From a virus (Duplodnaviria > Heunggongvirae > Uroviricota > Caudoviricetes): 53,137 nt of DNA. A model generated the notes under the pieces. It did no database searches and was not told the DNA's origin. It worked only from the letters and a program-made list of their open reading frames with translations. The DNA is taken from IMG/VR virus record IMGVR_UViG_2645727867_000003; one strand, written 5' to 3'. This document shows, one piece after another, positions 1 through 43,329 of the stretch (the first letter of the stretch is position 1; the number at the start of each line of letters is the position of its first letter). The translations under genes and the position numbers were made by a program.

Positions 1-524
1 ATGACAACTCAAATCTCTGTTGAAACCATCTCCCCGTTCACCCATAACCAGATTCCTGTTATTACCACCGAACTTTTGGCGCAGCTTTATGGCACCGAAA
101 TTCTGAATATCCAGGTTAACTTCACCAGAAACAAAGAGCGTTTTGTCGAAGGAAAGCACTTTTTTAAAGCATCGGGTGAAGAATTAAAAAATTTGCGACT
201 TACTTTAAGTAAGTCACAAAACCCCATATCTCCCAAAGCCCGCCCCTCACCCTATGGACAGAACGCGGAGCAGCACGCCACGCAAAAATGCTGGAAACCG
301 TTCAGGCGTGGGAAGTGTTCGAAAAACTCGAAGACTGTTATTTCAGCCAAAAACAGCCACCAGCAGCACAAAACCCCCCAACCCAAAATGATGGATACGC
401 ATTACTGATCCACCTCGATAAACACGGGCAGGTCGAATTCACGGAAAAAATCCCCGCCGATGCGATGGTATGCACTCTGGAACGGTTTTTATCTGGAGCA
501 ACACGACTGGATCGTTGCCCGTAA
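1..524 (+). pseudogene. ORF6N-domain antirepressor-like gene, disrupted by a frameshift near 230-245
   Basis: Frame 1 (1..408) matches the N-terminus of the intact paralog at 42437..42988 (ITTELLAxLYGTE...RFxEGKHFFKA). Homology then continues in frame 2 (288..524, ...AARHAKMLETVQAWEVFEKLED...). Confidence 0.5.
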
Positions 525-930
525 AGAACAACTGGTAGAACGGTTGATGCGGTTTTAATGATTGCAAAACCCCGGATGATCACTGGGGTTAATTTTATCA
601 AGCGTGATTGCCGCTAATCGCCCTCTCTCTGATTGAGCGTAAATCATCCAGGTTATGCAGTTCTTCCTGGACGTAATTGTCACAGGCTCCAGCAATGATA
701 GACTCTCAATTTTAAGAGCCGTAGATAAAGAGCCTGCACATACGTTCATTAAGCAAACGCTTCAAAATGTCTGGAAAAAAATACGGACTTCCGAAAATCT
801 GAAAAATCATCCATATCAACAGGATGCACGAAAAATGAGAGTTCCGTCACTTCCGGAATTAACTTTTCCGTGGCACTATTTACCCGGCATAGTGTATATC
901 TTCACAATAATGACATAATCAACGCAGTTC

Positions 931-962
931 ATGGGGGAGGTGATGGTCCCCCATCTTTTTGT
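931..962 (+). terminator. intrinsic terminator (8-bp stem ATGGGGGA/TCCCCCAT followed by T-run)
   Basis: Perfect inverted repeat with 8-nt loop followed by CTTTTTGT on the plus strand. Confidence 0.5.
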
Positions 963-965
963 CTG

Positions 966-1637
966 TTATTCCTGTGCCCAGCCAACCCTGTATACCAGGA
1001 TCTCATCCGCACTGCTCAGCGATTCCAGGTCCTTCTTCATGGTGCGCTGGCGAATGTGGATTTCCATCCCTTTGCTGAACATCGCCTGCTCTGCCGCTTC
1101 ACTCAGCGCAATAAGCTCTTCTGCTGTCACCTGTACATCATTGTTTTCCGCATCCGTCCAGAAAAACGCCTCCGGCAGTTTCCCCGCTTTCGCTGCCGCC
1201 ACCGATGGCTCAAGGCGCGTCTGCGTTGACTTTCCGTAGTCCCATTTCCGGCCATTGTGCTCAAACGTGTAGTTCGCCGCCTCCATCGCATTACGCCACG
1301 CGTTTATTTCATCGCCCTTCATCCCGCGCGCTTTCTCCGCGGTCAGAGTATCAACGACGTTTTCCCCGTCAAACTTCCACCGCCCGGAGATATCAGCTTT
1401 GCGGTTTTCTGCTGTATCCTCAACCTCCACCACACTCTGCCCCACTGGCCACAGCATCGACACATCCTTACTGATACTCGTGATTATGCCTTCGCTGTCA
1501 TAAACCAGCTTCAGCGTATCCGCCTTAAATGACGACTGGCTTTCATACCAGTCACGGCCATCCTCTGCCTTCAGGTACATTGACCCCGGAACATCCGACT
1601 TCTCAGGAGTATAACGTTGCAGATTTTTAAGATTCAT
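966..1637 (-). CDS. putative tail fiber assembly/chaperone protein (called mainly from position downstream of stf)
   Basis: 223-aa ORF immediately downstream of the side tail fiber gene. No clear match to the lambda Tfa C-terminal motif. Confidence 0.45.
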   Translation of the reverse strand: MNLKNLQRYTPEKSDVPGSMYLKAEDGRDWYESQSSFKADTLKLVYDSEGIITSISKDVSMLWPVGQSVVEVEDTAENRKADISGRWKFDGENVVDTLTAEKARGMKGDEINAWRNAMEAANYTFEHNGRKWDYGKSTQTRLEPSVAAAKAGKLPEAFFWTDAENNDVQVTAEELIALSEAAEQAMFSKGMEIHIRQRTMKKDLESLSSADEILVYRVGWAQE

Positions 1638-1705
1638 TTCTTCTCCTCATACGAATATTCAGGACAGGGTACCCGTTTAAGCTTTCCGCGCCCGGAAAAA
1701 TCATG

Positions 1706-2974
1706 TTATTCATGTTCCACCGTAACCCACTGGCTGCCATCATGAACCTGAAGGAAGCCGTAAGTGACAGCGGTGACACAGGCTGCCCCTAAATTGCCGT
1801 TCGTCAGTGATACCGGAGCCGTCCTGATATTCAGAATCACAGCGCCATCAGGGGCTGCATTTTCCCCCTGCGCACCGCCATAAAAAGAGGGGAAAACGAC
1901 TGTGCTGGAGGTGACTTCTGTTTTCTCGCTGATACGCACTCTGTTCGCCTGTGAATCTGCGCCATCCTTCCCTGCGGGGCCCGTCGGCCCGGTATCACCT
2001 TTCGGCCCCCGCTCACCGGCAGGGCCTGCCGGGCCGGGGTCACCTTTATCCCCTTTTTCCCCTTGTGGTCCTCTGGGGCCGGTAGCACCCTGTGGACCTC
2101 GATCACCAGGCTCGCCTTTTTCCCCCTTAGGACCGACGCTACCTGTTGGCCCCGGAGGTCCAGGTATACCCTGTGGACCAGCCGGACCTGTATCGCCTCT
2201 CTCCCCTGCCACACCCTGCAATCCTTGCGGCCCTCTCTCTCCGGCGGGTCCCCTCGGACCTGCCGGGCCCTGAGGCCCCGGCTCCCCTCTGGGGCCAGTG
2301 TCACCTTTTGGTCCCGGAGGTCCTCCGGGATCTCCCGGCTCTCCTTTTTCGCCTCTGGCTCCGGTTTCACCTCGCGGGCCCGCAGGACCAGCAGGCCCCT
2401 GAATACCCGCCTCTCCTTGCGGTCCCACGGGTCCGGTTTCACCCCGTGGCCCCTGTACCCCCTGTGGGCCTGCCTCACCACGCTCACCCTTTGGCCCACG
2501 CTCGCCGGTATCGCCTTTTGGCCCGGGAATACCCTGTGGCCCGGTGTCTCCCTTATCCCCCTTCGGTCCCCGCGCATTCTCTGCCCGTTTCTTCGCTTCC
2601 TCTGCACTCGCCGCTGACGCTTCCGCACGTTTCAGGATTTCCGCGGCCACCGCTTCCAGCTCTGCAAGGGCTTTCGGGTAATACTGTGCGTCCTCCAGGT
2701 CCATCAGAAATTTATTCAGCGTTCCCGGTGCAGAGTCCGCCTTCACCAGAATGTCACCCACATATGACGGCGCGTACCCTTCCGTGTTCAGCGTCACCCG
2801 GTACAACCCCGGCTCAACATCCATACTGTAACTGCCGGTTTCCCCCGGCTGACCATACGCCACCGTGGTGACAATCACCGTCTCCGTTGTGCGTCGCGCT
2901 TTCAGCTCTATCGTGCATCCCGGTACCGGCTTACCGGCCCCGTCCTTCAGCACACCAGAAATTTTAACCGTCAT
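1706..2974 (-). CDS. stf: side tail fiber protein with long collagen-like Gly-X-Y repeat region
   Basis: N-terminus [17 protein letters not shown]...CTIELKARR resembles lambda Stf. The central ~270 aa are Gly-X-Y triplets ([20 protein letters not shown]...). SD GGAAAGG precedes the ATG at 2974. Confidence 0.85.
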
Positions 2975-2986
2975 ACCTTTCCACCA

Positions 2987-3018
2987 ATAAAAAAGCCCGC
3001 AGCAGTAATGCCACGGGC
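2987..3018 (-). terminator. intrinsic terminator between lom and stf
   Basis: Minus-strand hairpin GCCCG...CGGGC followed by T6, about 14 nt upstream of the stf RBS. Confidence 0.5.
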
Positions 3019-3123
3019 TTCAGGACAGTGTAACTTTACGTTTCCTCAGACGCAGCTCACCCATAAGGTGGATGAACATGCTCATTATACCAATATTTAC
3101 AGAAGATAAAGCTGTATCTGCCG

Positions 3124-3815: not shown

Positions 3816-6800
3816 TCAGCTGATACTGATTCCCGCCGTGGATTTTTTCATCACCACAACCAGTAAATCACTGATGTACGTCGTCGGTGTCCAGTTGTTC
3901 GCGCCGGTAGACGACACATTAAACGTCAGGGTGACATGACCCCGTCCTGCTGGCATGTCAATCACCGATGAGAACACCCGGCTGACATCCGTTGCCGGTT
4001 CATGAAAAATCTCTGCCCCGTTTTTCAGCACCTGCAGCTTACAGGTTGAATACCAGTACGACTGCTGATTCGGGCTGTTGACGTTCTGGTGTTTCGTCCC
4101 ACGAAACAGCACCGGTGGAATGATAATCTGCCGGTCGAAGCCCTGGTCATCGTAAACCGTGACGGTTATCGTGCCACGGGCATAACTGTTATTCCGGGGA
4201 AAGGCTTTCCCCACCGTCTTCACCAGATCGCCTTCAATCTGGTTCGCAGACAGTTTCCCTCTGATGACACAGTTCTCGTTAATGGTGACATTATTGAGCG
4301 TGCCAGAATTCGCTGTCACAGCTCCGCTGATATCCGCATTGCGGGCCGTCAGCCTGCCCTCCGGCGTCAGGGAGAACGTCGGGGGATTGCCGGATGACGT
4401 GATACTCACCGCAAACAGTCGCTTCAGGAACACGTCGTTCATAAACAGCTGATTCCCCTGCGCCACAAACAGCGGCGTGGTGTTGCCGTTCTCCGGGGTA
4501 ATCATCGCGATACGGTCCGCCTGCAGCAGAATATTGCTCAGCGTCTGGCCATCAGCATCCTCAATCCCCGCACCAATACCGGCAACATACGGAATGCCGT
4601 TTTTCGTTTTCTGCACCTTCAGCATGTACAGCGCTGCCAGCTCATCATTCGTGTCTGACTGGACCTGCTGTATCTGCTGTATGGTGGCGCTCTGGTCTTC
4701 CAGCTTTTTATCCGTGGTCGAGGTGATTTCACTCCCTTTGTCATCCACGTACTGGCGGACCTGCGCTATCTGCCTGGCGTTTTCCTCCGTGCTCTGGCTG
4801 ACTGTCTGTGTGATTTCACTGCTCACCCGGTCCACCTGCTGACTCACCTGCGCGATGGCCAGCGTCTGGTCCTCATTCTTTTTCGCAACCAGCTGCGTGA
4901 GGCTGTTTTCCGCCTCCCCGATTTTTCGGGTCACTTCCGCAACATCCGTCTCCAGCCGCTGGCGGATGTCTTCTTCCAGTTGCGTGACCTCAGTACGCAG
5001 GGCTGACGCATCAATACGCTCTTTCAGTGCCTTCCCCAGCAGCGCCTCATCTATCAGCCCACGGAAAATTTCCAGATACCCTTCACCATCATTGCTGGCC
5101 TGCCCGCTGGCCTCCACAAACGCAGATTTCCCCACCAGGTTGACGCTGCGCACATAAAACCAGAAATCCTTCCCCGGCTTAATGTGCGGGCCGGAGACGC
5201 TCCACTGGCTGCCGGTACCCAGATAACGGGCAGAGGTTTCCACCTGTGCCGTGTCCGTGATGCGTTTTTCTGAGAACCAGAATTCATGCTGTACCGTCGG
5301 GTCATACACCGCAGGATGCGGGACCACCGTTATCTGAAAATAGCCCGGCGTCAGTTCAATGCTGGCCGGTGCCGCCGGTGCATTAATCCGGAATGTGGTG
5401 GTGGCAGGTTCGCCCTGCTGGCCGTAGCTGTTTATCGCCCTGACCGTCAGGGTGTATTCCCCGAGCGGCAGGCCACTGAAACGGTACTCCGTGTCCGCCG
5501 TGATGGCGCTGGTCACCAGGCGGCTGTTCTCACCACTGCCACTGGTCAGGCGCAGACTGAAGCGCACGCCCTTCACCACCCGCGGCGAGTCCCATTTCGC
5601 CAGCGCCAGATACTGGCCGTCTGAGGCACTCACCTCCACCGTGAGGTGCTGCACCGCTGGCGGGATGACGCTGTTCAGTGAGCCGGACATCGGCTCAAAG
5701 CGGGCCCCGTTATCCACAATGGCTTCTTTTTCCGGCACATGCTGCACCGCCGTGATGGCAAAGGTGCCGTCCGTGTTTTCCCGGATGGAAACACAGCGGA
5801 ACAGGCGACGACGCAGTGACGGCAGGGAGAGTCCCCACACACCGTATGTCGCCACGCCATCAGGCAGGACGCTGACCTGTATCCGGTCAGGGGCGGGGTG
5901 TGCAGTGATGTCCACGCGCACCGGCTTACCGCTGCCGTTAATCAGGTTCACCGTCGATGTACCTGTCTCCGGCAGTGTCACCTCACGGTCCAGCGTCAGT
6001 GTGCGGCTGGCGGCATCGATGGACAGGATGCGTCCGCCGGTCAGGGTCCCGGCATAGTCGTTATCACAGATTTCAATGATGTCACCGGGTGTGTGCCGCA
6101 GCCCCTGAGACCCGAGCGTGAAATCCACCGTCTGCGTTTCCAGCAGTTCTGTCTTTATCACCCACAGTCCGGCACGGTGAGCCTGACCGCGGCTGGTACA
6201 GCCGAACGCATCCATCTTCAGCAGGTTGCGCCCGTAGCGCAGGATGGCATCCGGGTCTTCCACCAGTTCCGTGGACGTCTGCCAGCCGTTCTGCGGGTCG
6301 GTGTAATTCACCTCCACCGCCGTGTGCCGGTCCTTCAGGGCACTGAAGCTGTAGCGGAACCCCACGCCGTTATCATCCACCACCACATCGCTGTTGGTGT
6401 ACGGCCACACCACATCCGACGGACGGTCCTGAACGAACGTCAGCGTCTGGCCGTTCCATACCGGCATACAGCGCATCGCCGAGCAGAAATCCCCCAGGAC
6501 ATCCCACACCTTACGCTGCTGTGACAGGTACGCATTAAAGGTCATCCGCGGCTCTGTGCCCCCGAAACCATCCGGGACCGTCTGGTCGCAGTACTGCCCG
6601 ATGGCATACAGCGCCCACTTGTCCACATCCGCGGCCCCCAGGCGTTTTCCCATCCCGTAGCGCGGGTGGGTCAGCATGTCCCACAGGCACCAGGCCGGGT
6701 TATTGCTGTATGCCGGTTTCAGACTCCCGTCCCAGATACCGCTGTAGGTGCGTTTTTCCGGGGCATAGTTTGACGGCACCTGAATGATGCGGCCGCGGAT

Positions 6801-7511
6801 ATGGTAGTTCACCACCATCTGCTGGCCACCGAACTGCTCCGCATCCACCTGCAGCCCCACAATGGCCGTGTTCGGGTAGCACTGTTTCACATCGATGATT
6901 TCGGTGTATGACGACCACAGCGTTCTGTTCTGCAGCTGGTCCGTGGTACTGTCCGCCGTCACCCTGACCACCCGGATGTTAAAGGGCCGCTCAGGGAGAT
7001 TATTCAGAATCACCGACGTCAGGTACTGCGAGGTGGTCTTGCCGTTAATGGTGACATCCTTCTCCGTCACCCAGTTACCGTTACGCTCAAGCTGAATCAG
7101 CAGGCGGACAGAAGAGGGATTACGGTCACCCTTTGAGGTGGTCTCCACCAGTGACTGCACCCCGAAGGTGACCCGCAGACGGTCAATGTTCGCTGACGTG
7201 ATGGTGCGCGTCACCGGCTTTGCCTTCGTCACCTCCACGCCCAGTGCGGTTTCTGCCCCGGAGGACTCAAAGCCTTCCGGCGGTGTCTGCTCCTGCTCCC
7301 CGGCACGCCAGACGGCGGTCACACCGTGTATCACGGGATTACCGTCCGTGTCCGTCAGCGGGGTTTTGTTCACCAGAATACTCTGCAGTCCCTTCACCGG
7401 ACCTTCCACCGGTCCCTCACCAATGGCATCAATCACGCTCATCATCTGCGTTGACTTGAGATTGTCCTTCGCCTCACGCGGTGTGTGCCCCTTGCCGCCC
7501 CCTTTACCCAC
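3816..7511 (-). CDS. J: host specificity protein J (central tail fiber/tip)
   Basis: Collinear similarity to lambda gpJ from [22 protein letters not shown] onward. Likely GTG start at 7511 preceded by SD AGGAGAGGGGG; the 5' part of the ORF-track ORF has no counterpart in J. Confidence 0.9.
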
Positions 7512-7555
7512 TCTGTCCCCCTCTCCTGTCTGATGTCTGAATCTGTTTATGCCCA

Positions 7556-7586
7556 AAAACAACAGGCACCCCGGAGGGTGCCTGTG
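7556..7586 (-). terminator. intrinsic terminator in the J 5' leader
   Basis: Minus-strand hairpin ACAGGCACC-CTCCGG-GGTGCCTGT followed by TGTTTTTGGG. Confidence 0.45.
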
Positions 7587-7715
7587 TCATGACGGAATAA
7601 AATTTCTGAAATTCTTCACATTTCTGCAAATTGCCTGTAGCCGCAATAATGACGCTGCGTTACTTTTTTGATGCCTGAAAAATAACTCCATAACGTTAAT
7701 CTTCATCGTTTATTT

Positions 7716-7749
7716 CCCGCAGCTCCGCTAACTCTGCGGGATTTTTTTA
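7716..7749 (+). terminator. intrinsic terminator of mini-unit 1
   Basis: CCCGCAG-11 nt-CTGCGGG followed by ATTTTTTTA. Confidence 0.6.
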
Positions 7750-7940
7750 TCCCTTAAACCCGGCCTGATATTTTCTGTCCTCTGCCACCGATATCCCGCA
7801 GCCCCTTCCTGTGAATAAAAATTCTGAATTTATTCACATTTCTGCAAATTACCTGTGGCACTCATAATCACCATACGTTACAATTCGCCCGCTGATTACA
7901 GGCAATAATCAAAACTACTCCTTAAGGTGACTATTCGTTT

Positions 7941-7978
7941 CTCCCGTCAATATCCAGGTGTATTACGGGAGATTTTTT
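7941..7978 (+). terminator. intrinsic terminator of mini-unit 2
   Basis: CTCCCGT-17 nt-ACGGGAG followed by ATTTTTTAA. Confidence 0.5.
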
Positions 7979-8170
7979 AATTCCCCCCTCAGTATCACGG
8001 ACATTACTGACGCCACTCTGTCGCCAGAGACGAATGTACGGGATAAATAAAAACTCTGATTTTCTTCACATTTTCAGTCATTCTCCGTGGCAGAGTGCAT
8101 TCCGGCAGGTTACAGTTTCTTCGGGTCAATAAAAATAAAACGCCAACAGGTTAGTCAACATCGTTCTCTT

Positions 8171-8201
8171 CCCGCAGCACGGAGTACTGCGGGATTTTTT
8201 T
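8171..8201 (+). terminator. intrinsic terminator of mini-unit 3
   Basis: CCCGCAG-9 nt-CTGCGGG followed by ATTTTTTTA. Confidence 0.6.
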
Positions 8202-8389
8202 ATCCCCTTAAACCGGCATGATGCCTTCTGTCCTCTGCCACCGATATCCGGCCCCTCCCTTCCCGTGAATAAAAATTCTGAGTTTATTCACATTTCCGCA
8301 CACTGACTGTAGTGCTCATAATCACGCTGCGTTACAGTTCATCTGCCAGAATAATGAAAAATTCCTTAAAGTTAATCTTCGTATCTCTT

Positions 8390-8422
8390 CCCGCAGGCGC
8401 CGAACACTGCGGGATTTTTTTT
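8390..8422 (+). terminator. intrinsic terminator of mini-unit 4
   Basis: CCCGCAG-10 nt-CTGCGGG followed by ATTTTTTTT, abutting the stop codon of gene I. Confidence 0.6.
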
Positions 8423-9066
8423 CATCCCCGCCCGATAACCACCACTTTCCCGTCACCGCCCTCATCACGGGTGCTGATGTCCTGGGATATCCGTCGTGAA
8501 CCAACCAGCATTTCACCGTAAGGCACCGGCACCGGATTCCCCTGAGCAATCATGTTGTCCAGTGACGAAAAATACGTGTTCTGTCTGCCGTTATCCGTGC
8601 TTTTGTACTCCGGCGTCTTTGCCTTCGGGGCCAGCATCTGGGCCACACCACCCAGTGCCATTGCAGAGCCCATGGAAAACATGATGTTGCTGGCTGCAAT
8701 ACCGATACCCGGCATCCAGATAGCTGCCGCAACCAGCGCAACGCCAAGCACGGCCTGAAACACTCCGCCACTTTTGGCACCTTCTGCCCGGGGAACCAGA
8801 TGAATGACATCCCCCGGGTTCAGTGGCTCATGCAGTCGGGGCGATATCTGGTCCGGCGCGGTATCCTCACCGGCAATACGTATCTGATACCAGCCTTCGT
8901 TCATCTGACGGCGGAATCCCGGCACCTGCTGCGACAGGGCACGGATGGCCTCCGCTGCCGTGTTCACATACAGACTGATGCGGCGACCAAATCGTTGTAA
9001 ATCCCCGTGAAGGCAGATGCGGACCAGTGGCGGTGACGCCAGACAGAATGCGTTCGTCGTTGCCAT
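8422..9066 (-). CDS. I: tail assembly protein I
   Basis: Collinear with lambda gpI (…RICLHGDLQRFGRRI…, …GGVAQMLAPKAKTP…, C-terminal VVVIGRG). Confidence 0.85.
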   Translation of the reverse strand: MATTNAFCLASPPLVRICLHGDLQRFGRRISLYVNTAAEAIRALSQQVPGFRRQMNEGWYQIRIAGEDTAPDQISPRLHEPLNPGDVIHLVPRAEGAKSGGVFQAVLGVALVAAAIWMPGIGIAASNIMFSMGSAMALGGVAQMLAPKAKTPEYKSTDNGRQNTYFSSLDNMIAQGNPVPVPYGEMLVGSRRISQDISTRDEGGDGKVVVIGRG

Positions 9067-29662: not shown

Positions 29663-31627
29663 TCATGCCGCAGTGTCTGTGCTGTTCACTTCCACCGCAA
29701 TGCTGTCAATCAGCAGCGTATACGTCGCCGATTTTGATATATCGGTCAGTTGCAGTTTGTCCGCCACCCCCGATGCCGGTGACTTCACCAGTGTGAACGC
29801 CGCTCCCCGTTTCTCATCCAGTACTGGTGTCACCTGAATGCTGTTGTTTCCGGCAAACTCAAAAGCCAGCGTGTGCCATCCGTTATCAAAGACCCCGAAT
29901 GTATCCAGCTTCGCATTCGGCTTCCTGTGATGCATCGCGTTCAGGTTCGTCGTATCCGTCTGCAGAAAGAAGGACATCAGCATATCGTTACCTTCTCCTG
30001 ACAGCGTCACCCCCTCCGGCAGGGACGACAACTGCCAGTAAATGCCCAGGGCAAACTGATTCGGCACCAGTGAACCCGGCAACTTAAACCGTACGCTCAC
30101 ACGTCCGCCCTTCTTCAGTAACTCCGCCCCCTGTCCGGCTGCATCATGCTCCAGAAACCAGATGTGGTTTTCCGGTTTGTTCAGTTGCAGAGCCTTACCT
30201 CCCGTAGCCCCCGCATCACTGACCACCGCTTCAGCAATGTTTTTGTTAACACTGTCTCCGCCCGCCGGTTTGTGATAATAGCGCCAGCCCTGTGATGCCA
30301 GGTCTTCGCCGGATGCCAGCAGACTCATCAGGGTACGCTTACTGGCCGGGGCTTCCGCCTCTCTCTCCGGACCTTCACCGGAAGGTACGGTGGGCCTCAC
30401 CATATCAGGCTGTTTTCCGGTAATGAATTCAGCGGTTCTCCCGGCGTGCACCAGAATCGCCGTTGCCAGACGGTCGGAAATAATCCCCCGGCGTGCCCAG
30501 GTGCTGAAATGGCTCGCCCTGTCCTGTGACGTCCAGGTGGCTGAGCTGTCACGCCATTTCGAACCGTAATACCCGATACCCGGAATGTCCGGGTCTTCTT
30601 CCGGTTTGTTCGTCGGCACATTCACCCCGTTCTCATCCGTCATGAACGGTACGAAATGGATATTCTTTTCCGTTTTGTTTTTATAGCTGCCGTACACCGT
30701 CTGGTACGTGGATTCGTTCTTCTGCTTCCAGAAATACGTCGTATCTCCACATATCCAGGGAACACCGCCAGCAGAGCCACCAACGCACTGACCTGCCATA
30801 TCCGTCAGGTCTGCACGGAATTTATCAACCAGCGCACCAAACTGTGCTGCGTGATTTACCGGCGTACCGCCAAAATCAAATTCCCCCTGCATCCACACCA
30901 CGGCAAACAGCACATTTTTCGGGTTCTTCTTCAGTGCTGCTTTTGTTCGACCGATAAGGTCCTTGTACAGCGGCTTGTCCACACCCCAGCGGGTTGAATT
31001 CTCCGAGGCACCACTCGCGTCACTGTATGTGCCATCAGCTCCGGTGGTGAACGCTGAACCACCACGACAGCACGGAGCCAGCAGAATGCCCGCATTCGCC
31101 GGTATAAACGGCAGCAATTTTTTGGCAATATGCAGCCCCTGCCCCACGGTTCCGTACTGCCCCTTTGACAGGTCCGCTTTCGGATGGTTAAGGCGGCTCA
31201 TGTCCTGCACATCATGCAGACAATGGTCCGCCGGAATGATGTCGTTATATTTGCATGCTGCACCGCCCGGTGTCACCGTACTGCGGCGCGCCAGCTGCTT
31301 AATGCGCGGCTCCGGACGGTCATATGTCTCCGGCAGCGGAAGACCTTCACCATACGACATGCCATTTGACTGCCCTGCCAGAACCACAACAAAGTAATAC
31401 TCCGGGTCGCTGGTGGCACTGACAGCCACCGCCTTACCCTCATTACCGGTCACCGCCACTGGTGTGGTGACATCACCTTCCGCCGCAATGGCCTGCATCA
31501 GGGTATAAGGCGTGATGGCCACCGGACTGCCAAATGGCTGCCAGCCCTCCTTCAGTTTTTGTGTCAGTCGTTCAGCAAGGTCTGACGGCGATGCCGCCCT
31601 GACCACATCGTAGTGTTTAAATGCCAT
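29663..31627 (-). CDS. nanS: prophage-type sialate O-acetylesterase (NanS-p family, SGNH hydrolase) with C-terminal extension
   Basis: Block YYFVVVLAGQSNGMSYGEGLPLP…RIKQLAR…YGTVGQGLHIAKKLLPFIP…CCRGGSAFT…WMQGEFD matches the E. coli NanS/YjhS family as recalled from memory. Confidence 0.85.
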   Translation of the reverse strand: MAFKHYDVVRAASPSDLAERLTQKLKEGWQPFGSPVAITPYTLMQAIAAEGDVTTPVAVTGNEGKAVAVSATSDPEYYFVVVLAGQSNGMSYGEGLPLPETYDRPEPRIKQLARRSTVTPGGAACKYNDIIPADHCLHDVQDMSRLNHPKADLSKGQYGTVGQGLHIAKKLLPFIPANAGILLAPCCRGGSAFTTGADGTYSDASGASENSTRWGVDKPLYKDLIGRTKAALKKNPKNVLFAVVWMQGEFDFGGTPVNHAAQFGALVDKFRADLTDMAGQCVGGSAGGVPWICGDTTYFWKQKNESTYQTVYGSYKNKTEKNIHFVPFMTDENGVNVPTNKPEEDPDIPGIGYYGSKWRDSSATWTSQDRASHFSTWARRGIISDRLATAILVHAGRTAEFITGKQPDMVRPTVPSGEGPEREAEAPASKRTLMSLLASGEDLASQGWRYYHKPAGGDSVNKNIAEAVVSDAGATGGKALQLNKPENHIWFLEHDAAGQGAELLKKGGRVSVRFKLPGSLVPNQFALGIYWQLSSLPEGVTLSGEGNDMLMSFFLQTDTTNLNAMHHRKPNAKLDTFGVFDNGWHTLAFEFAGNNSIQVTPVLDEKRGAAFTLVKSPASGVADKLQLTDISKSATYTLLIDSIAVEVNSTDTAA

Positions 31628-31853: not shown

Positions 31854-31859
31854 ACATGT

Positions 31860-31885
31860 AAAAAGGCTCCTGCGATGAGGAGCCT
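31860..31885 (-). terminator. minus-strand intrinsic terminator convergent with the sRNA-A terminator
   Basis: Hairpin GGCTCCT-N6-AGGAGCC followed by T5 on the minus strand. Confidence 0.5.
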
Positions 31886-31899
31886 GGATGTATGCCTAA

Positions 31900-32900
31900 T
31901 CTCTGTATACTGCATGGTGCCGGGTGCCTCCCGGTGAACAAATGTCCGTGATATCAGTCGGCCACACAGGAAATGATACGATATCACCCCTCCGCACAGG
32001 GGGATTCACCATGCCCGTTTTTTTTAACAAACTCCTCATCAATCAGACAATCATCAACCTCATGAATTGTGAGGAATTTAACATTTCACAACACAGCCTT
32101 TTCCCTGCATAAAAAAGCCCCTCCGGAGAGGGGCTTCGCTACGTGTCTGTTAACCATATGCATGATGCCGGGTGCCTCCCGGTGAGTTCAGTATCAGCAC
32201 CTGAACCCGCACAGAAAGGATAGAGTAGAAACACCTGCGCTGATATGCCCCTCCGCTCAGGGGGATTCACCATGCAGAACTTTTTTAACAACTCCCCGTA
32301 AGACAGGCAAGCATCAACCATCTGAACTGTGAGGAATTTAACATTTCACAACACAGCGTTTTTCCTGCATAAAAAAGCCCCTCAGGAGAGGGGCTGACAC
32401 TGCGTATCTGTATCATCATGAACATGGTGCCGGGTGCCTCCCGGTGAGTCCAGTCTGGTGTCCCTGAACCCGCGTTTGCATTGCCTACAACAGAAAAGAT
32501 GCAAATCACACCAGTCGCCCCTCCGCACAGGGGGATTCACCATGCAGAACTTTTTTAACAACTCCCCCTCAGACAGGCAAGCATCAACCACCTGAACTGT
32601 GAGGAATTTAACACTTAACAACACAGCCTTTTCCCGCACAAAAAAAGCCCCTCCGGAGAGGGGCCGATCGCTATGTATACACCATAAGCAGCATAGTGCC
32701 GGGTGCCTCCCGGTAGATTCAGCCTGACTACTGAATCTGCGTATTGTGACCATCGCTATGGAGACCATGTCAGACGCCCCTCCGCACAGGGGGATTCACT
32801 ATGCTGGCTCGTTTTTACAAGACTTCCATCGATCAGACAATAGCCCATCAACCGAATTGTGAGTCATTTAACATTTCCATGAGGTAACTGATATCCAGCT
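31900..32900 (-). repeat. tandem array of four ~260-bp structured repeat units (candidate minus-strand sRNA genes), each with a hypervariable internal hairpin
   Basis: Each unit has conserved blocks GTGCCGGGTGCCTCCCGGTGA, CCCCTCCGCACAGGGGGATTCACCATGC, GAATTGTGAGGAATTTAACATTTCACAACACAG and a minus-strand terminator GCCCCTC-CGGA-GAGGGGC plus T6 (32111-32134, 32371-32394, 32641-32664). A 50-70-nt unit-specific segment lies between the first two blocks. Confidence 0.6.
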
Positions 32901-33489: not shown

Positions 33490-34215
33490 TCAGATAACGT
33501 CTGCTTTCTGCAAATATGCATAGCTCTCAGGTGGTGCACCATAATACTGGTGAAATACAGAAATGAAGTAGGACTTACTTGAGTAACCACATTTTTCCGC
33601 TATCGCTTGTCCACACTCTCGCTGGAAACATACAAGATTAACAGCAACACGCATTCGCTCCTCCAGCAACAACCGACTAAAGCTATAACCTTCATCCTTA
33701 AGTTTTCGCTTCAACAAGCTTTCGCTCATATGCAATTGTAATGCAATCACACCAAGCATCCAGCCTGCCGATATGTCGGTCTGAATTATAGCCCTTACTT
33801 TACAGCTGATATTATTTACAGCACCGGACAAAAATAATGGCAGACGTCTGTCTGTTGCAAATAAGGAGATACATGAAAATGCGGTTATAACAGAGAAATC
33901 CTTCAAAGTATCACTGGATTCACTATGCTGGGTTATTAAAGCCTCCGCCAGTTCCGTATTGTAAATATCAGACATCAAATAAAGAGGAATTTTTGTCGGT
34001 GTATACTCCGTCAGTTCACACTCCCTTTCCAGATACTGATTGACGACGCTGTTACTTATATCTGCCATTTTCACTCTGTCGGCATAAGCACAGAAAAGCC
34101 CTCTTATATTTCTGGCAACAAGCATAACACTTCCGGCATCGAGTGAAACTTTTTCTTTTTCAAGAAAAATATCTATCGGATAGCGAATCAGGACCACAGA
34201 GCAGGCAACATCCAT
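33490..34215 (-). CDS. AraC/XylS-family transcriptional regulator (GadX-like C-terminal HTH)
   Basis: C-terminal …LLKRKLKDEGYSFSRLLLEERMRVAVNL…CGYSSKSYFISVFHQYYGAPP… is an AraC-type double HTH. AT-rich codon usage. Confidence 0.8.
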   Translation of the reverse strand: MDVACSVVLIRYPIDIFLEKEKVSLDAGSVMLVARNIRGLFCAYADRVKMADISNSVVNQYLERECELTEYTPTKIPLYLMSDIYNTELAEALITQHSESSDTLKDFSVITAFSCISLFATDRRLPLFLSGAVNNISCKVRAIIQTDISAGWMLGVIALQLHMSESLLKRKLKDEGYSFSRLLLEERMRVAVNLVCFQRECGQAIAEKCGYSSKSYFISVFHQYYGAPPESYAYLQKADVI

Positions 34216-34591: not shown

Positions 34592-34599
34592 GTCCATAA

Positions 34600-34860
34600 G
34601 AAAGCCCCTCCGGAGAGGGGCTGAAGCCGCATTTCTGTATCACCATGAGCATGGTGCCGGGTGCCTCCCGGTGAGTTCAGCCCGGTGACACCAAACCCGC
34701 GTATTCTCGCTTACGATCATCAAAGAGATCATACCGTTCACCAGTCGCCCCTCCGCACAGGGGGATTCACCATGCGAAATTTTTTTAACAAATGCTCAGT
34801 CTGACAGGCAACTGTCAACTTACTGAATTGTGAGGGATTTAACACTTCACAGCACAATAT
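34600..34860 (-). repeat. solitary fifth copy of the ~260-bp structured repeat unit
   Basis: Contains all four conserved blocks plus its own variable segment. Minus-strand terminator at 34605-34628. Confidence 0.55.
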
Positions 34861-35617: not shown

Positions 35618-35694
35618 TGGACCGCCATCGAGGACTCGAACCCCGCGCAGCCAGCTTCGAAGGCTGGCGCTCTATCCCGATGAGCTAATGGCGG
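35618..35694 (-). tRNA. tRNA-Arg (anticodon UCG)
   Basis: Hand-folded cloverleaf: acceptor CCGCCAT/ATGGCGG, D-stem GCTC/GAGC, anticodon loop CUUCGAA, T-loop TTCGAGT, 3' CCA encoded. Confidence 0.7.
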
Positions 35695-35702
35695 TATGGA
35701 TA

Positions 35703-35778
35703 TGGTGGCCCTTGCTGGATTTGAACCAGCGACCTGGCGATTATGAGTCGCTCGCTCTCACCACTGAGCTAAAGGGCC
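35703..35778 (-). tRNA. tRNA with CAU anticodon, ileX-like (tRNA-Ile2 read via lysidine, or Met)
   Basis: GGCCCTTTAGCTCAGTGGTGAGAGCGAGCGACTCATAATCGCCAGGTCGCTGGTTCAAATCCAGCAAGGGCCACCA closely resembles E. coli ileX as recalled from memory. Confidence 0.8.
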
Positions 35779-42009: not shown

Positions 42010-42165
42010 TTACTCCTCAGGTTCGTAAGCTGTGAAGACAGCGACCTCCGTCTGGCCGGTTCGGATTCGTACCTCGCAGAGGTCTTTCCTCGTTACCAGT
42101 GCCGTCATTATGACGGTTAAACAGATGACAATCAGGGCGATTAACATCGCCTTTTGCTGCTTCAT
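42010..42165 (-). CDS. hokD: Hok/Gef-family type I toxin (HokD/RelF-like)
   Basis: MKQQKAMLIALIVICLTVIMTALVTRKDLCEVRIRTGQTEVAVFTAYEPEE. SD AGGAG upstream. Confidence 0.8.
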   Translation of the reverse strand: MKQQKAMLIALIVICLTVIMTALVTRKDLCEVRIRTGQTEVAVFTAYEPEE

Positions 42166-42436
42166 AGCCTGCTTCTCCTTGCCTTTCGGCACGTAAGAGG
42201 CTAACCTACATGTGCAAAGCATGAAATTGGCCTCAGATTAATGTTAAGCGTCCTGCAAGACGCGTAATGTTAACTGGGGCTTTTCTCTGTCTGCCTTACG
42301 GCGGCATGCCCGAGGCAGACAGCCTCAAGCACCCGCAGCAATTCTACTTAACTCTTCTTTCCCCGCAAATCATTTTATCCCCGATGGTAATGTTCTCCCG
42401 ATATGGGAATTCCCATATCAAGGTTAACTCAATCGG

Positions 42437-42988: not shown

Positions 42989-43329
42989 GATAACGCCCTC
43001 TGGTTGATGAATTTAACTATCACCACCTTCAGGTCTCAATCATCAGGTGGCGAGACGTACAGGGTTGAGACTACCGGATCAACCAACCGGCCAGCCTTTC
43101 GGCTGCCCCATACGCCTCACCATAATTCAGATGTGCGTGCGCATACGACAATAAAAAACACGCTCGCGGCGTGTGTCTGTCGCGGTTGAATATCCGGGGT
43201 CTCAATCCCGACGGTCAACTCGACCGTGCGGTGAATATAGCCCCGGATTAGTAATTACGTCAACCCCAGCGGCAAATCGAATAAACCACCAGCGCTACCG
43301 CCATTGCAACTCCTGCCGTTACGAATGCC

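Follow-up and report, generated by a model that had tools for sequence, protein, structure and literature searches.

A tandem array of four probable small RNA genes of the PasB/EcOnc22-24 family in the I-J tail-gene gap of a lambdoid prophage

The stretch of DNA analyzed here (the window; 53,137 nucleotides, IMG/VR record IMGVR_UViG_2645727867_000003, Caudoviricetes) encodes on its minus strand the tail assembly gene I (8422..9066; 214 aa, RefSeq 'tail assembly protein') and the tail tip gene J (3816..7511; in RefSeq, on identical genomes, 'gpJ: phage attachment tail tip protein J'), as read from the list of open reading frames (ORFs) and, for I, from the translation. The two genes are separated by 910 bp of non-coding DNA (7512-8421), bounded by the GTG start codon of J on one side and the stop codon of I (8422) on the other. 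This gap carries four plus-strand direct repeats of approximately 220 nt that run antisense to the tail operon and that likely represent four tandem, independently transcribed genes for Hfq-dependent, trans-acting small RNAs (sRNAs) of the PasB/EcOnc22-24 family. A preliminary description of this DNA had noticed that non-coding DNA splits I and J; the insert is indeed present, although it is larger than the ~860 bp that were given. It had also regarded I and J as adjacent in lambda, which holds in so far as lambda has no such unit, whereas a gap of 60 nt (15445-15504), containing a hairpin alone, does exist there. The insert corresponds to what is called a moron, i.e., extra DNA between genes that are adjacent in related phages, equipped with predicted promoter and terminator units of its own.

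The four units share a common layout. Their boxes start at 7596, 7814, 8046 and 8268, resulting in a spacing of 218, 232 and 222 nt, and each unit consists of an upstream box, a -10 element, an unstructured body of 76-88 nt and a hairpin followed by six to eight U residues, the stretch from box to hairpin being mostly without structure in every unit. Unit 1 starts with a promoter region (7596..7672) that contains the box (7596-7623) with its core TCTGA-N6-TCACA (7605-7620) and two -10 candidates, AATAAT (7645-7650) and TACTTT (7661-7666). The predicted sRNA of this unit, which is of the EcOnc22 type and has 76 nt (7673..7748), was delimited by alignment, folding and a 5' end set by homology with PasB and the EcOnc22-24 peaks described below; it contains an ARN-rich 5' part, the segment AACUCC...GUUAAUCUUC and the stem CCCGCAG/CUGCGGG (7716-7722 / 7734-7740) with seven U. 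For the other units the RNA is described from folding and from homology of the 5' end, in unit 3 also from the ARN count. Unit 2 has its promoter region at 7814..7890 (box 7814-7841, core 7823-7838; -10 candidates CATAAT, 7863-7868, and TACAAT, 7879-7884) and a predicted sRNA of 88 nt (7891..7978) with the seed-like segment ACUCCUUAAGG, a long bulged stem (7940-7953 / 7960-7972) and six U. The promoter region of unit 3 (8046..8122; box 8046-8073, core 8055-8070) offers TACAGT (8111-8116) as -10 candidate and has GTGCAT where the others have a TATAAT-like hexamer; its predicted sRNA of 79 nt (8123..8201) shows the ARN run AAUAAAAAUAAA, followed by ACGCCAACAGGUUAGUC, the stem 8171-8177 / 8187-8193 and seven U. 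Finally, unit 4 combines a promoter region at 8268..8344 (box 8268-8295, core 8277-8292; -10 candidates CATAAT, 8317-8322, and TACAGT, 8333-8338) with a predicted sRNA of 78 nt (8345..8422) containing AUUCCUUAAAGUUAAUCUUC, the stem 8390-8396 / 8407-8413 and eight U, the last of which overlaps the stop codon of I. All these features lie on the plus strand, and the four bodies are 60-79% identical to one another.

Most of this architecture had been recognized in the preliminary description. Its four units with a plus-strand intrinsic terminator each are reproduced by folding, which shows a stable hairpin and six to eight T at the end of all four units; the stem CCCGCAG/CTGCGGG with differing loops, seen in three terminators, belongs to units 1, 3 and 4, the stem of unit 2 being longer and different. 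A simple terminator scan reports unit 1 only, because the loops of the other units exceed 8 nt. The -10-like element noted in three units is found as CATAAT or AATAAT in units 1, 2 and 4. Furthermore, the sequences ACGCTGCGTTAC and GTTAATCTTC, described as a 5' sequence common to units 1 and 4, were both seen again; since the RNA 5' ends are set by homology, ACGCTGCGTTAC lies upstream of the RNA and is predicted to be promoter DNA, not the RNA 5' end. The box, which had been described as palindromic in all units, is present in all four, a good palindrome being formed only in units 2 and 4 (GTGAATAAA...TTTATTCAC).

Homology over promoter, body and terminator identifies the array units as members of the PasB/EcOnc22-24 family of prophage sRNAs. 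An alignment (A1) of the four units, the PasB locus and three gaps of the O157 strain Sakai is colinear from the box to the U run, each unit of the window reaches an nhmmer score of 117-143 bits, and unit 1 is 95.9% identical to the gap of the VT1-Sakai prophage (Sp15). PasB is encoded by E2348/69, an enteropathogenic E. coli (EPEC) strain (NC_011601, 1466343-1466261, minus strand, 83 nt, probe AATCCCGCAGTGATCGCGGAGCT; PMC8550237 Table S6), and these coordinates fall into the I-J gap of prophage PP6, between the tail assembly gene I and gpJ, on the strand opposite to the tail genes. It was validated by northern blotting, and Hfq-dependent stability was reported for the five Pas sRNAs (Pearl Mizrahi et al., 2021; PMC8550237). 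In the same study, in which interacting RNAs were ligated and sequenced (RIL-seq), PasB had 37 partners, of which 30 were coding sequences or 5' untranslated regions, it was the second RNA in 99-100% of its own chimeras, as is typical of genuine sRNAs, and these chimeras were formed almost wholly with RNAs of the core genome, the accessory-genome fraction being 0.5-2% (PMC8550237). EcOnc22 (Sp15), EcOnc23 (Sp14) and EcOnc24 (Sp11) were detected in O157 Sakai as peaks of Hfq in cross-linking and analysis of cDNA (CRAC; Tree et al., 2014; PMC4104026 Table S2); EcOnc22 gave a northern band of ~85 nt and was destabilized in an hfq deletion strain (PMC4104026), while the target entry of EcOnc22-24 reads 'unknown' (PMC7873438). 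Their coordinates all lie inside the 240-bp J-I gaps of Sp15, Sp14 and Sp11, again opposite to the tail-gene strand. PasB thus resembles the array units in its site in the I-J gap, its orientation, box and -10 spacing, the layout of its body with an A-rich 5' part, AACUCCUU and GAUCUUC, and the terminator CCCGCAG/CUGCGGG; it differs in being a single gene, whereas four tandem copies with diverged bodies are present here. Likewise, the CRAC peaks of EcOnc22-24 fall on RNA homologous to the array units, but each Sakai prophage has one unit and units 2-4 have no counterpart in Sakai.

These homologies support, at the level of sequence, the earlier proposal of an array of plus-strand small RNA genes antisense to the tail operon and of the prophage Hfq-binding type, and they give a name to the family that the preliminary description had left unassigned. 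No Rfam family matches the units, neither at the gathering score (7450-8550) nor at E values up to 10, where chance-level terminator matches were the only hits; this also applies to the prophage sRNA models AgvB (RF02702), AsxR (RF02703), STnc100 (RF02076), IsrK, C4 and others, with 0 matches in 7450-8550 at the gathering score. The same search does find AgvB in Sakai and STnc100 elsewhere in the window. There is no Rfam model of the PasB/EcOnc22-24 family and it is therefore invisible to genome annotation; among the 40 matches listed of 85 to units 2 and 3 in E. coli genomes (see below), none has an annotation under these units. A recent preprint describes PasB as embedded in a phage structural-gene operon, with NC_049945 among the PasB-bearing phages (Zhu, Shabalina and Storz, 2026; 10.64898/2026.05.13.724894), and NC_049945 is also among the matches of unit 1 here. 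According to that preprint, PasB ranks lowest in diversity among the Pas sRNAs, with only a few nucleotide changes, and a genome typically carries a single variant of it (10.64898/2026.05.13.724894).

The RNA 5' ends can be placed with the aid of the published peaks. The Sakai coordinates of Tree et al. refer to an older sequence version; AgvB, located by Rfam in the current version at 1.94 Mb, is displaced by +138 to +146 nt, and +140 was applied to the EcOnc peaks. The peaks of EcOnc22, EcOnc23 and EcOnc24 have a constant offset from the J start, and a single shift is therefore taken to be valid for all three. After the shift, they start 0-2 nt from GCCTGAAAAATAACTCC, which is the position homologous to the annotated 5' end of PasB. 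Homology with these mapped ends predicts RNAs of 76-88 nt, shorter than the ~90-110 nt given in the preliminary description. Across the family, 74 distinct bodies have lengths of 74-92 nt with nearly every value taken; these near-continuous lengths and the lack of a common start codon led to rejection of a coding role of the bodies. Folding of the 3' end of each sequence yields a terminal hairpin in 74 of the 74 distinct bodies (-9.4 to -18.8 kcal/mol), with compensatory stem types such as CCCGCAG/CUGCGGG, CCCACAG/CUGUGGG and CUCCCGU.AAUAU/GUAUUACGGGAG. RNAalifold on a MAFFT alignment of 21 bodies found no structure, the terminators of the unit-2 type being aligned out of register. Moreover, at least three consecutive ARN triplets, a motif bound by Hfq's distal face (Tree et al., 2014; PMC4104026), occur in 86% of the family bodies compared to 11% of shuffled sequences.

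The upstream box of each unit is the most conserved part of the unit in a sample of junctions anchored on the I protein. The pattern AATAAAANNTCTGANNNTNTTCACATTT occurs exactly four times in the window, against no occurrence in 100 shuffles; the core TCTGA-N6-TCACATTT is invariant, and each of 66 distinct units, which were gathered via the I protein without recourse to the box, contains TCTGA-N6-TCACA. The region from the box to the start is free of insertions and deletions, while the transcribed body is full of them. The box is better described as a directional conserved element at a fixed distance to the start rather than as a palindrome. A hexamer of the form TAnnnT (TACTTT, TACAAT, TACAGT and TACAGT in units 1-4) ends 7 nt upstream of each inferred start and is found at a fixed distance to the box in 135 of 141 distinct units; it lies inside the 'GTTAC' motif of the preliminary description. 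The -10 element of the CATAAT type proposed there is present in three units as stated, but the downstream TAnnnT is the better-conserved candidate. The TATAAT-like hexamer is located 16 nt further upstream, has the TAnnnT form in 58 of 141 units, its first T not being conserved, and is missing in unit 3 as well as in another lineage of the family. Its use as the main -10, with a primary transcript that would be ~16 nt longer and then trimmed, is less likely on account of this weaker conservation and of the observed 5' ends, which agree with the downstream TAnnnT. A scan for consensus promoters finds in the region a single promoter, GTGGCA-18-TACAAT of unit 2 (7855-7884).

The core of the box agrees with the CRP consensus TGTGA-N6-TCACA in 9 of 10 positions, and its right half with flank (TCACATTT) in 8 of 8; the C in the left half, where CRP prefers G, is likewise invariant. 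If each repeat family is counted once, the window contains three CRP-like sites compared to 1.9 expected by chance, which is not an excess over chance. Class I CRP sites are centered near -61.5 (or -71.5, -82.5 or -92.5) from the transcription start, and the four units and PasB alike have the center of the box at -60.5, counted from a 5' G that was deduced from coverage and CRAC peaks; if the TATAAT-like hexamer were the real -10, the center would be at ~-44.5 and thus outside every CRP class. For PasB, 258 chimeras were recovered in exponential phase in DMEM vs. 1820 in lysogeny broth overnight (~7-fold; PMC8550237). This shift has the same direction as that of the CRP-activated CyaR and the opposite direction to that of the CRP-repressed Spot 42, with the growth phase differing as well. 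Among the papers searched, none connects PasB with CRP. As a lead only, the box may be regarded as a class I CRP-like candidate site. Other factors were considered by eye and dropped: a sigma-54 promoter (only unit 2 has an exact TGGCAC, and a conserved GC at -12 is missing), a sigma-E promoter, an ArgR box (GAATAAAA.TTC resembles one ARG box, the second box is absent and the position is atypical for a repressor) and OmpR-type direct repeats.

The pattern of variation among 10 distinct four-unit arrays gives a further view of the array. Counted by column, none of the 112 box positions and none of the 24 positions of the -10 vary, compared to 5 of 182 in the body, 1 of 75 in the stem, 16 of 198 in the spacers and 7 of 36 in the loops (Fisher exact test, p = 2.8e-6); the body of unit 2 has 0 variable positions among the 10 alleles. 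Box, -10, body and stem are by this comparison of alleles under stronger constraint than spacers and loops.

Arrays are the minority form of the family. Among viral contigs collected via the box, 115 loci have one unit, four have two, three have three and five have four. In the I-anchored sample, i.e., 80 related loci found via I and biased towards relatives of the window, all 72 complete junctions carry at least one unit, antisense and between I and J, with 54 single, 8 double, 1 triple and 9 quadruple loci. The comparison of I-J junctions across lambdoid prophages, suggested as a check in the preliminary description, therefore shows units in 72 of 72 related junctions and none in the 60-nt gap of lambda. 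A four-unit array was not found in deposited phage genomes. Units 2 and 3 together are present in 85 of 5426 complete E. coli genomes (~1.5%; 67 at a coverage of at least 80%), mostly non-O157 Shiga toxin-producing E. coli (STEC) from cattle and patients; the array is found mainly in STEC that lack the enterocyte effacement locus (LEE), from cattle and human patients, and O104:H21 94-3024 and O91:H21 FWSEC0008 are examples of strains that carry it. A scan with one genome per species returned only two contigs of ~500 bp from unrelated taxa, and because this species-wide scan is nearly empty, the family is taken, as judged from these searches, to be DNA that is accessory at the level of strains in E. 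coli and its phages. The two contigs are assigned to Asaia platycodi (L126, 546 bp) and Parendozoicomonas haliclonae (L127, 460 bp) and probably stem from contamination with E. coli phage DNA; the sequence that comes after the box in L126 and in a further locus (L037) is not related to PasB.

The spacers between the units retain traces of the neighboring genes. Spacer 1 (7749..7813) is a remnant of a gene I allele (3' end), its minus-frame translation RDIGGRGQKISGRV resembling the I C-terminus RDEGGDGKVVVIGRG, both up to the stop codon, and it is 88% identical to spacer 3 (8202..8267), a second, frameshifted relic of the I 3' end (translation DIGGRGQKASCRF). Spacer 2 (7979..8045) holds a relic of the Shine-Dalgarno/start region of J at 8013-8025, recognized by a direct repeat (92% identical to 7508-7520) and by its translation, which has GDRV as found upstream of J. 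The nearest single-copy relatives are 99% identical to the body of unit 1, 80% to that of unit 2, 78% to that of unit 3 and 86% to that of unit 4. Moreover, two- and three-unit arrays differ in composition. Because of the I/J relics in the spacers, the diverged units 2-4 and the differing composition of the arrays, the array is interpreted as having been put together when I-J junctions of different lambdoid phages recombined, not by recent tandem duplication. As a side observation, the I-J gap (~854 nt) of seven related viral contigs (L190, L173, L180, L189, L204, L205, L207) contains sodC, encoding a Cu,Zn superoxide dismutase, on the sRNA strand; the insert replaces the PasB promoter, while the 3' body and the terminator of PasB are kept downstream of sodC. 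The insert agrees with sodC-F, known from prophages of O157 (PMC2569942), and the I-J junction is by these comparisons a recurrent cargo site for sRNA genes or sodC.

On this basis the following mechanism can be proposed. Each unit would be a small moron with its own promoter and Rho-independent terminator directed against the tail operon, and could therefore be expressed from a repressed prophage. Transcription would probably start at the G 68 nt after the TCTGA of the box, using a weak -35 and the TAnnnT -10, and would probably be aided by a factor bound to the invariant box centered at -60.5, with CRP-cAMP as the leading candidate. Each RNA of 76-88 nt would bind Hfq via its U tail and the ARN-rich 5' segment and pair with mRNAs via the single-stranded segment upstream of the terminator, i.e., AACUCC(A/U)U...GUUAAUCUUC in unit 1, with the variants CGCC in unit 3 and UUCC in unit 4; this segment is partly anti-Shine-Dalgarno. 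Since identity among the bodies is limited to 60-79%, the array probably broadens the set of targets or divides it. A further step, namely that the array is a co-regulated, seed-diversified prophage sRNA module, in which one CRP-like site allows shared switching by carbon status or stationary phase while the RNAs act on different targets, is a tentative idea that we consider rather doubtful at present. If true, this module would amount to a counterpart of Qrr1-4 that is transferred horizontally and was put together by recombination between I-J junctions of different lambdoid phages.

Several points weigh against the interpretation as four active, Hfq-dependent sRNA genes. Unit 3 is without the TATAAT-like hexamer and the -35 hexamers are poor in all units. 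The placement of the 5' ends derives from RNA-seq coverage in EPEC, and the Sakai shift was measured at 1.94 Mb and assumed at 2.17-2.90 Mb; by this placement EcOnc22 would have 75 nt compared to ~85 nt in the northern blot. RNA size and Hfq dependence are known from the homologues EcOnc22 and PasB only, in other strains. Units 1 and 3 have three to four ARN triplets in a row and units 2 and 4 only two. The sequences of the family are kin by descent, so that the samples are non-independent and the statistics on conservation and ARN triplets are indicative. Finally, no common target motif of PasB was found in the RIL-seq study (PMC8550237).

Alternatively, the units might act mainly in cis. The predicted unit RNAs show perfect complementarity to that part of the late mRNA which lies between I and J, and antisense RNAs together with four convergent promoters could tune or delay the synthesis of J in lytic growth; in a variant of this explanation, the units might interfere with the late mRNA of related superinfecting phages. 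The strict antisense location between I and J in the 72 complete junctions fits with such a role, as does the ribosome-binding site that J has of its own behind a terminator-like hairpin, by which J expression could be uncoupled from I. Furthermore, units of the types seen in the array are also found singly in other phages, the body of unit 1 being 99% identical to that of single-unit loci; however, units 2-4 reach only 78-86% identity to their single-copy relatives, so that pairing across phages would be imperfect. Moreover, the Hfq-dependent chimeras of PasB are almost all with core-genome RNAs (accessory fraction 0.5-2%), and both homologues were detected in uninduced lysogens, in which the late operon is silent. 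A mainly cis-acting function is therefore judged unlikely, although roles in cis and in trans are compatible with each other.

The array might also be partly in decay, i.e., one or two units work and the rest are by-products of the recombination that duplicated the junctions. Such a view would account for the missing TATAAT-like hexamer in unit 3, for the different terminator of unit 2 with only six U and for spacers that are gene relics, one of them frameshifted; furthermore, a single unit suffices in most phages. It is difficult to reconcile with the finding that 4/4 units keep the invariant box, the TAnnnT at its fixed distance, the start G and the hairpin with U run, and that, among the 10 alleles, variation in the bodies and stems of all units is much lower than in spacers and loops, with an unchanged body in unit 2, and we regard it as quite improbable. 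That the repeats merely form a bank of terminators or insulators against antisense transcription into the tail genes, with incidental promoter-like parts, appears very improbable: four strong plus-strand hairpins with U runs within 900 bp would suit such a function, but one terminator would do, the best-conserved part is the box with the -10 and not the terminator, and the homologues yield discrete, abundant, Hfq-bound RNAs. The explanation as four PasB/EcOnc22-24-type sRNA genes is thus preferred over these alternatives.

The units of the array can be compared to other sRNA systems. The anti-sRNAs AgvB and AsxR as well as STnc100/PasD are likewise short Hfq-binding moron RNAs of lambdoid prophages with their own promoter and terminator that are expressed in lysogens; they differ in their sites (downstream of Q/PR'), in their unrelated sequences and in having Rfam models. 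Qrr1-4, OmrA/OmrB and PrrF1/PrrF2, multi-copy sRNA families that were also raised in the discussion of the preprint (10.64898/2026.05.13.724894), share with the array the paralogous sRNAs with a common promoter layout, a terminator and partly diverged pairing regions, and the copies of OmrA/B and PrrF1/2 are adjacent as in the array. However, they belong to the core genome and arose by duplication, while the array resides in a phage structural operon and was, in our interpretation, joined by recombination. Family, site, orientation and Hfq dependence have already been published; what appears to be new is the tandem array of diverged paralogues, the extent to which the family is diverse, the origin of the array by recombination and the upstream element with its invariant sequence and precise spacing. 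PasB and EcOnc22-24 are among the better-supported prophage sRNAs of pathogenic E. coli, and the 74 distinct bodies, together with arrays that range from one to four genes, make the family much more diverse than had been described. The invariant upstream element at its fixed start distance provides an experimental handle. Any regulatory effect of the array would be specific to the strains carrying it, i.e., mainly LEE-negative STEC.

Regarding the flank of the array towards J, the start codon of J is GTG (7511-7509, minus strand; ORF list and translation), preceded by the Shine-Dalgarno-like sequence GGAGAGGGGG (7526-7517, minus strand) and, directly upstream of this ribosome-binding site, by a terminator-like hairpin on the tail-operon strand (7552..7585; stem 7585-7562, then TGTTTTTGGG), which was found in the terminator scan and folds with 10 pairs (-21.4 kcal/mol, z = -5.4). 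The statement of the preliminary description that J has its own GTG and Shine-Dalgarno sequence downstream of a minus-strand terminator was thus correct. By alignment, the hairpin before J is kept in the EPEC and Sakai loci. The hairpin in the lambda gap is GC-rich (ACCGCCCGCAGGCGGT), terminator-like on the tail-operon strand and located just before the J ribosome-binding site; because a hairpin is present in both the lambda gap and the window, it is regarded from sequence comparison as a common trait of lambdoid I-J junctions, independent of the sRNA insert.

The rest of the prophage encodes additional RNAs. STnc100 (RF02076) has five matches on the minus strand (119-172 bits), four of them in tandem at 31854-32833 with a spacing of ~260 nt and one at 34592-34804, 1.8 kb off, which makes these copies a second sRNA array of the same prophage. 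A CRP-like sequence TGTGAG(G/T)(A/C/G)ATTTAACA is located ~25-40 nt upstream of each STnc100 copy (32068, 32328, 32598, 32858 and 34829), so that a box of the TGTGA-N6-TCACA type precedes every copy in both sRNA arrays, the copies being repeats and as such non-independent. Within the tentative idea of a co-regulated module, these sites hint at catabolite control as a possibly general feature of prophage sRNA morons. A linkage to stx was rejected, as the stretch examined (29.5-37.5 kb) contains no stx gene. The STnc100 region also holds ORFs of 654 aa (29663-31627) and 241 aa (33490-34215), and it is adjoined by two tRNA genes on the minus strand (35621-35778). In the early region, Rfam matches to the sok antitoxin RNA (hok/sok-type), the C4 antisense RNA and IsrK are found on the minus strand at 42160-42334 and 43043-43227.

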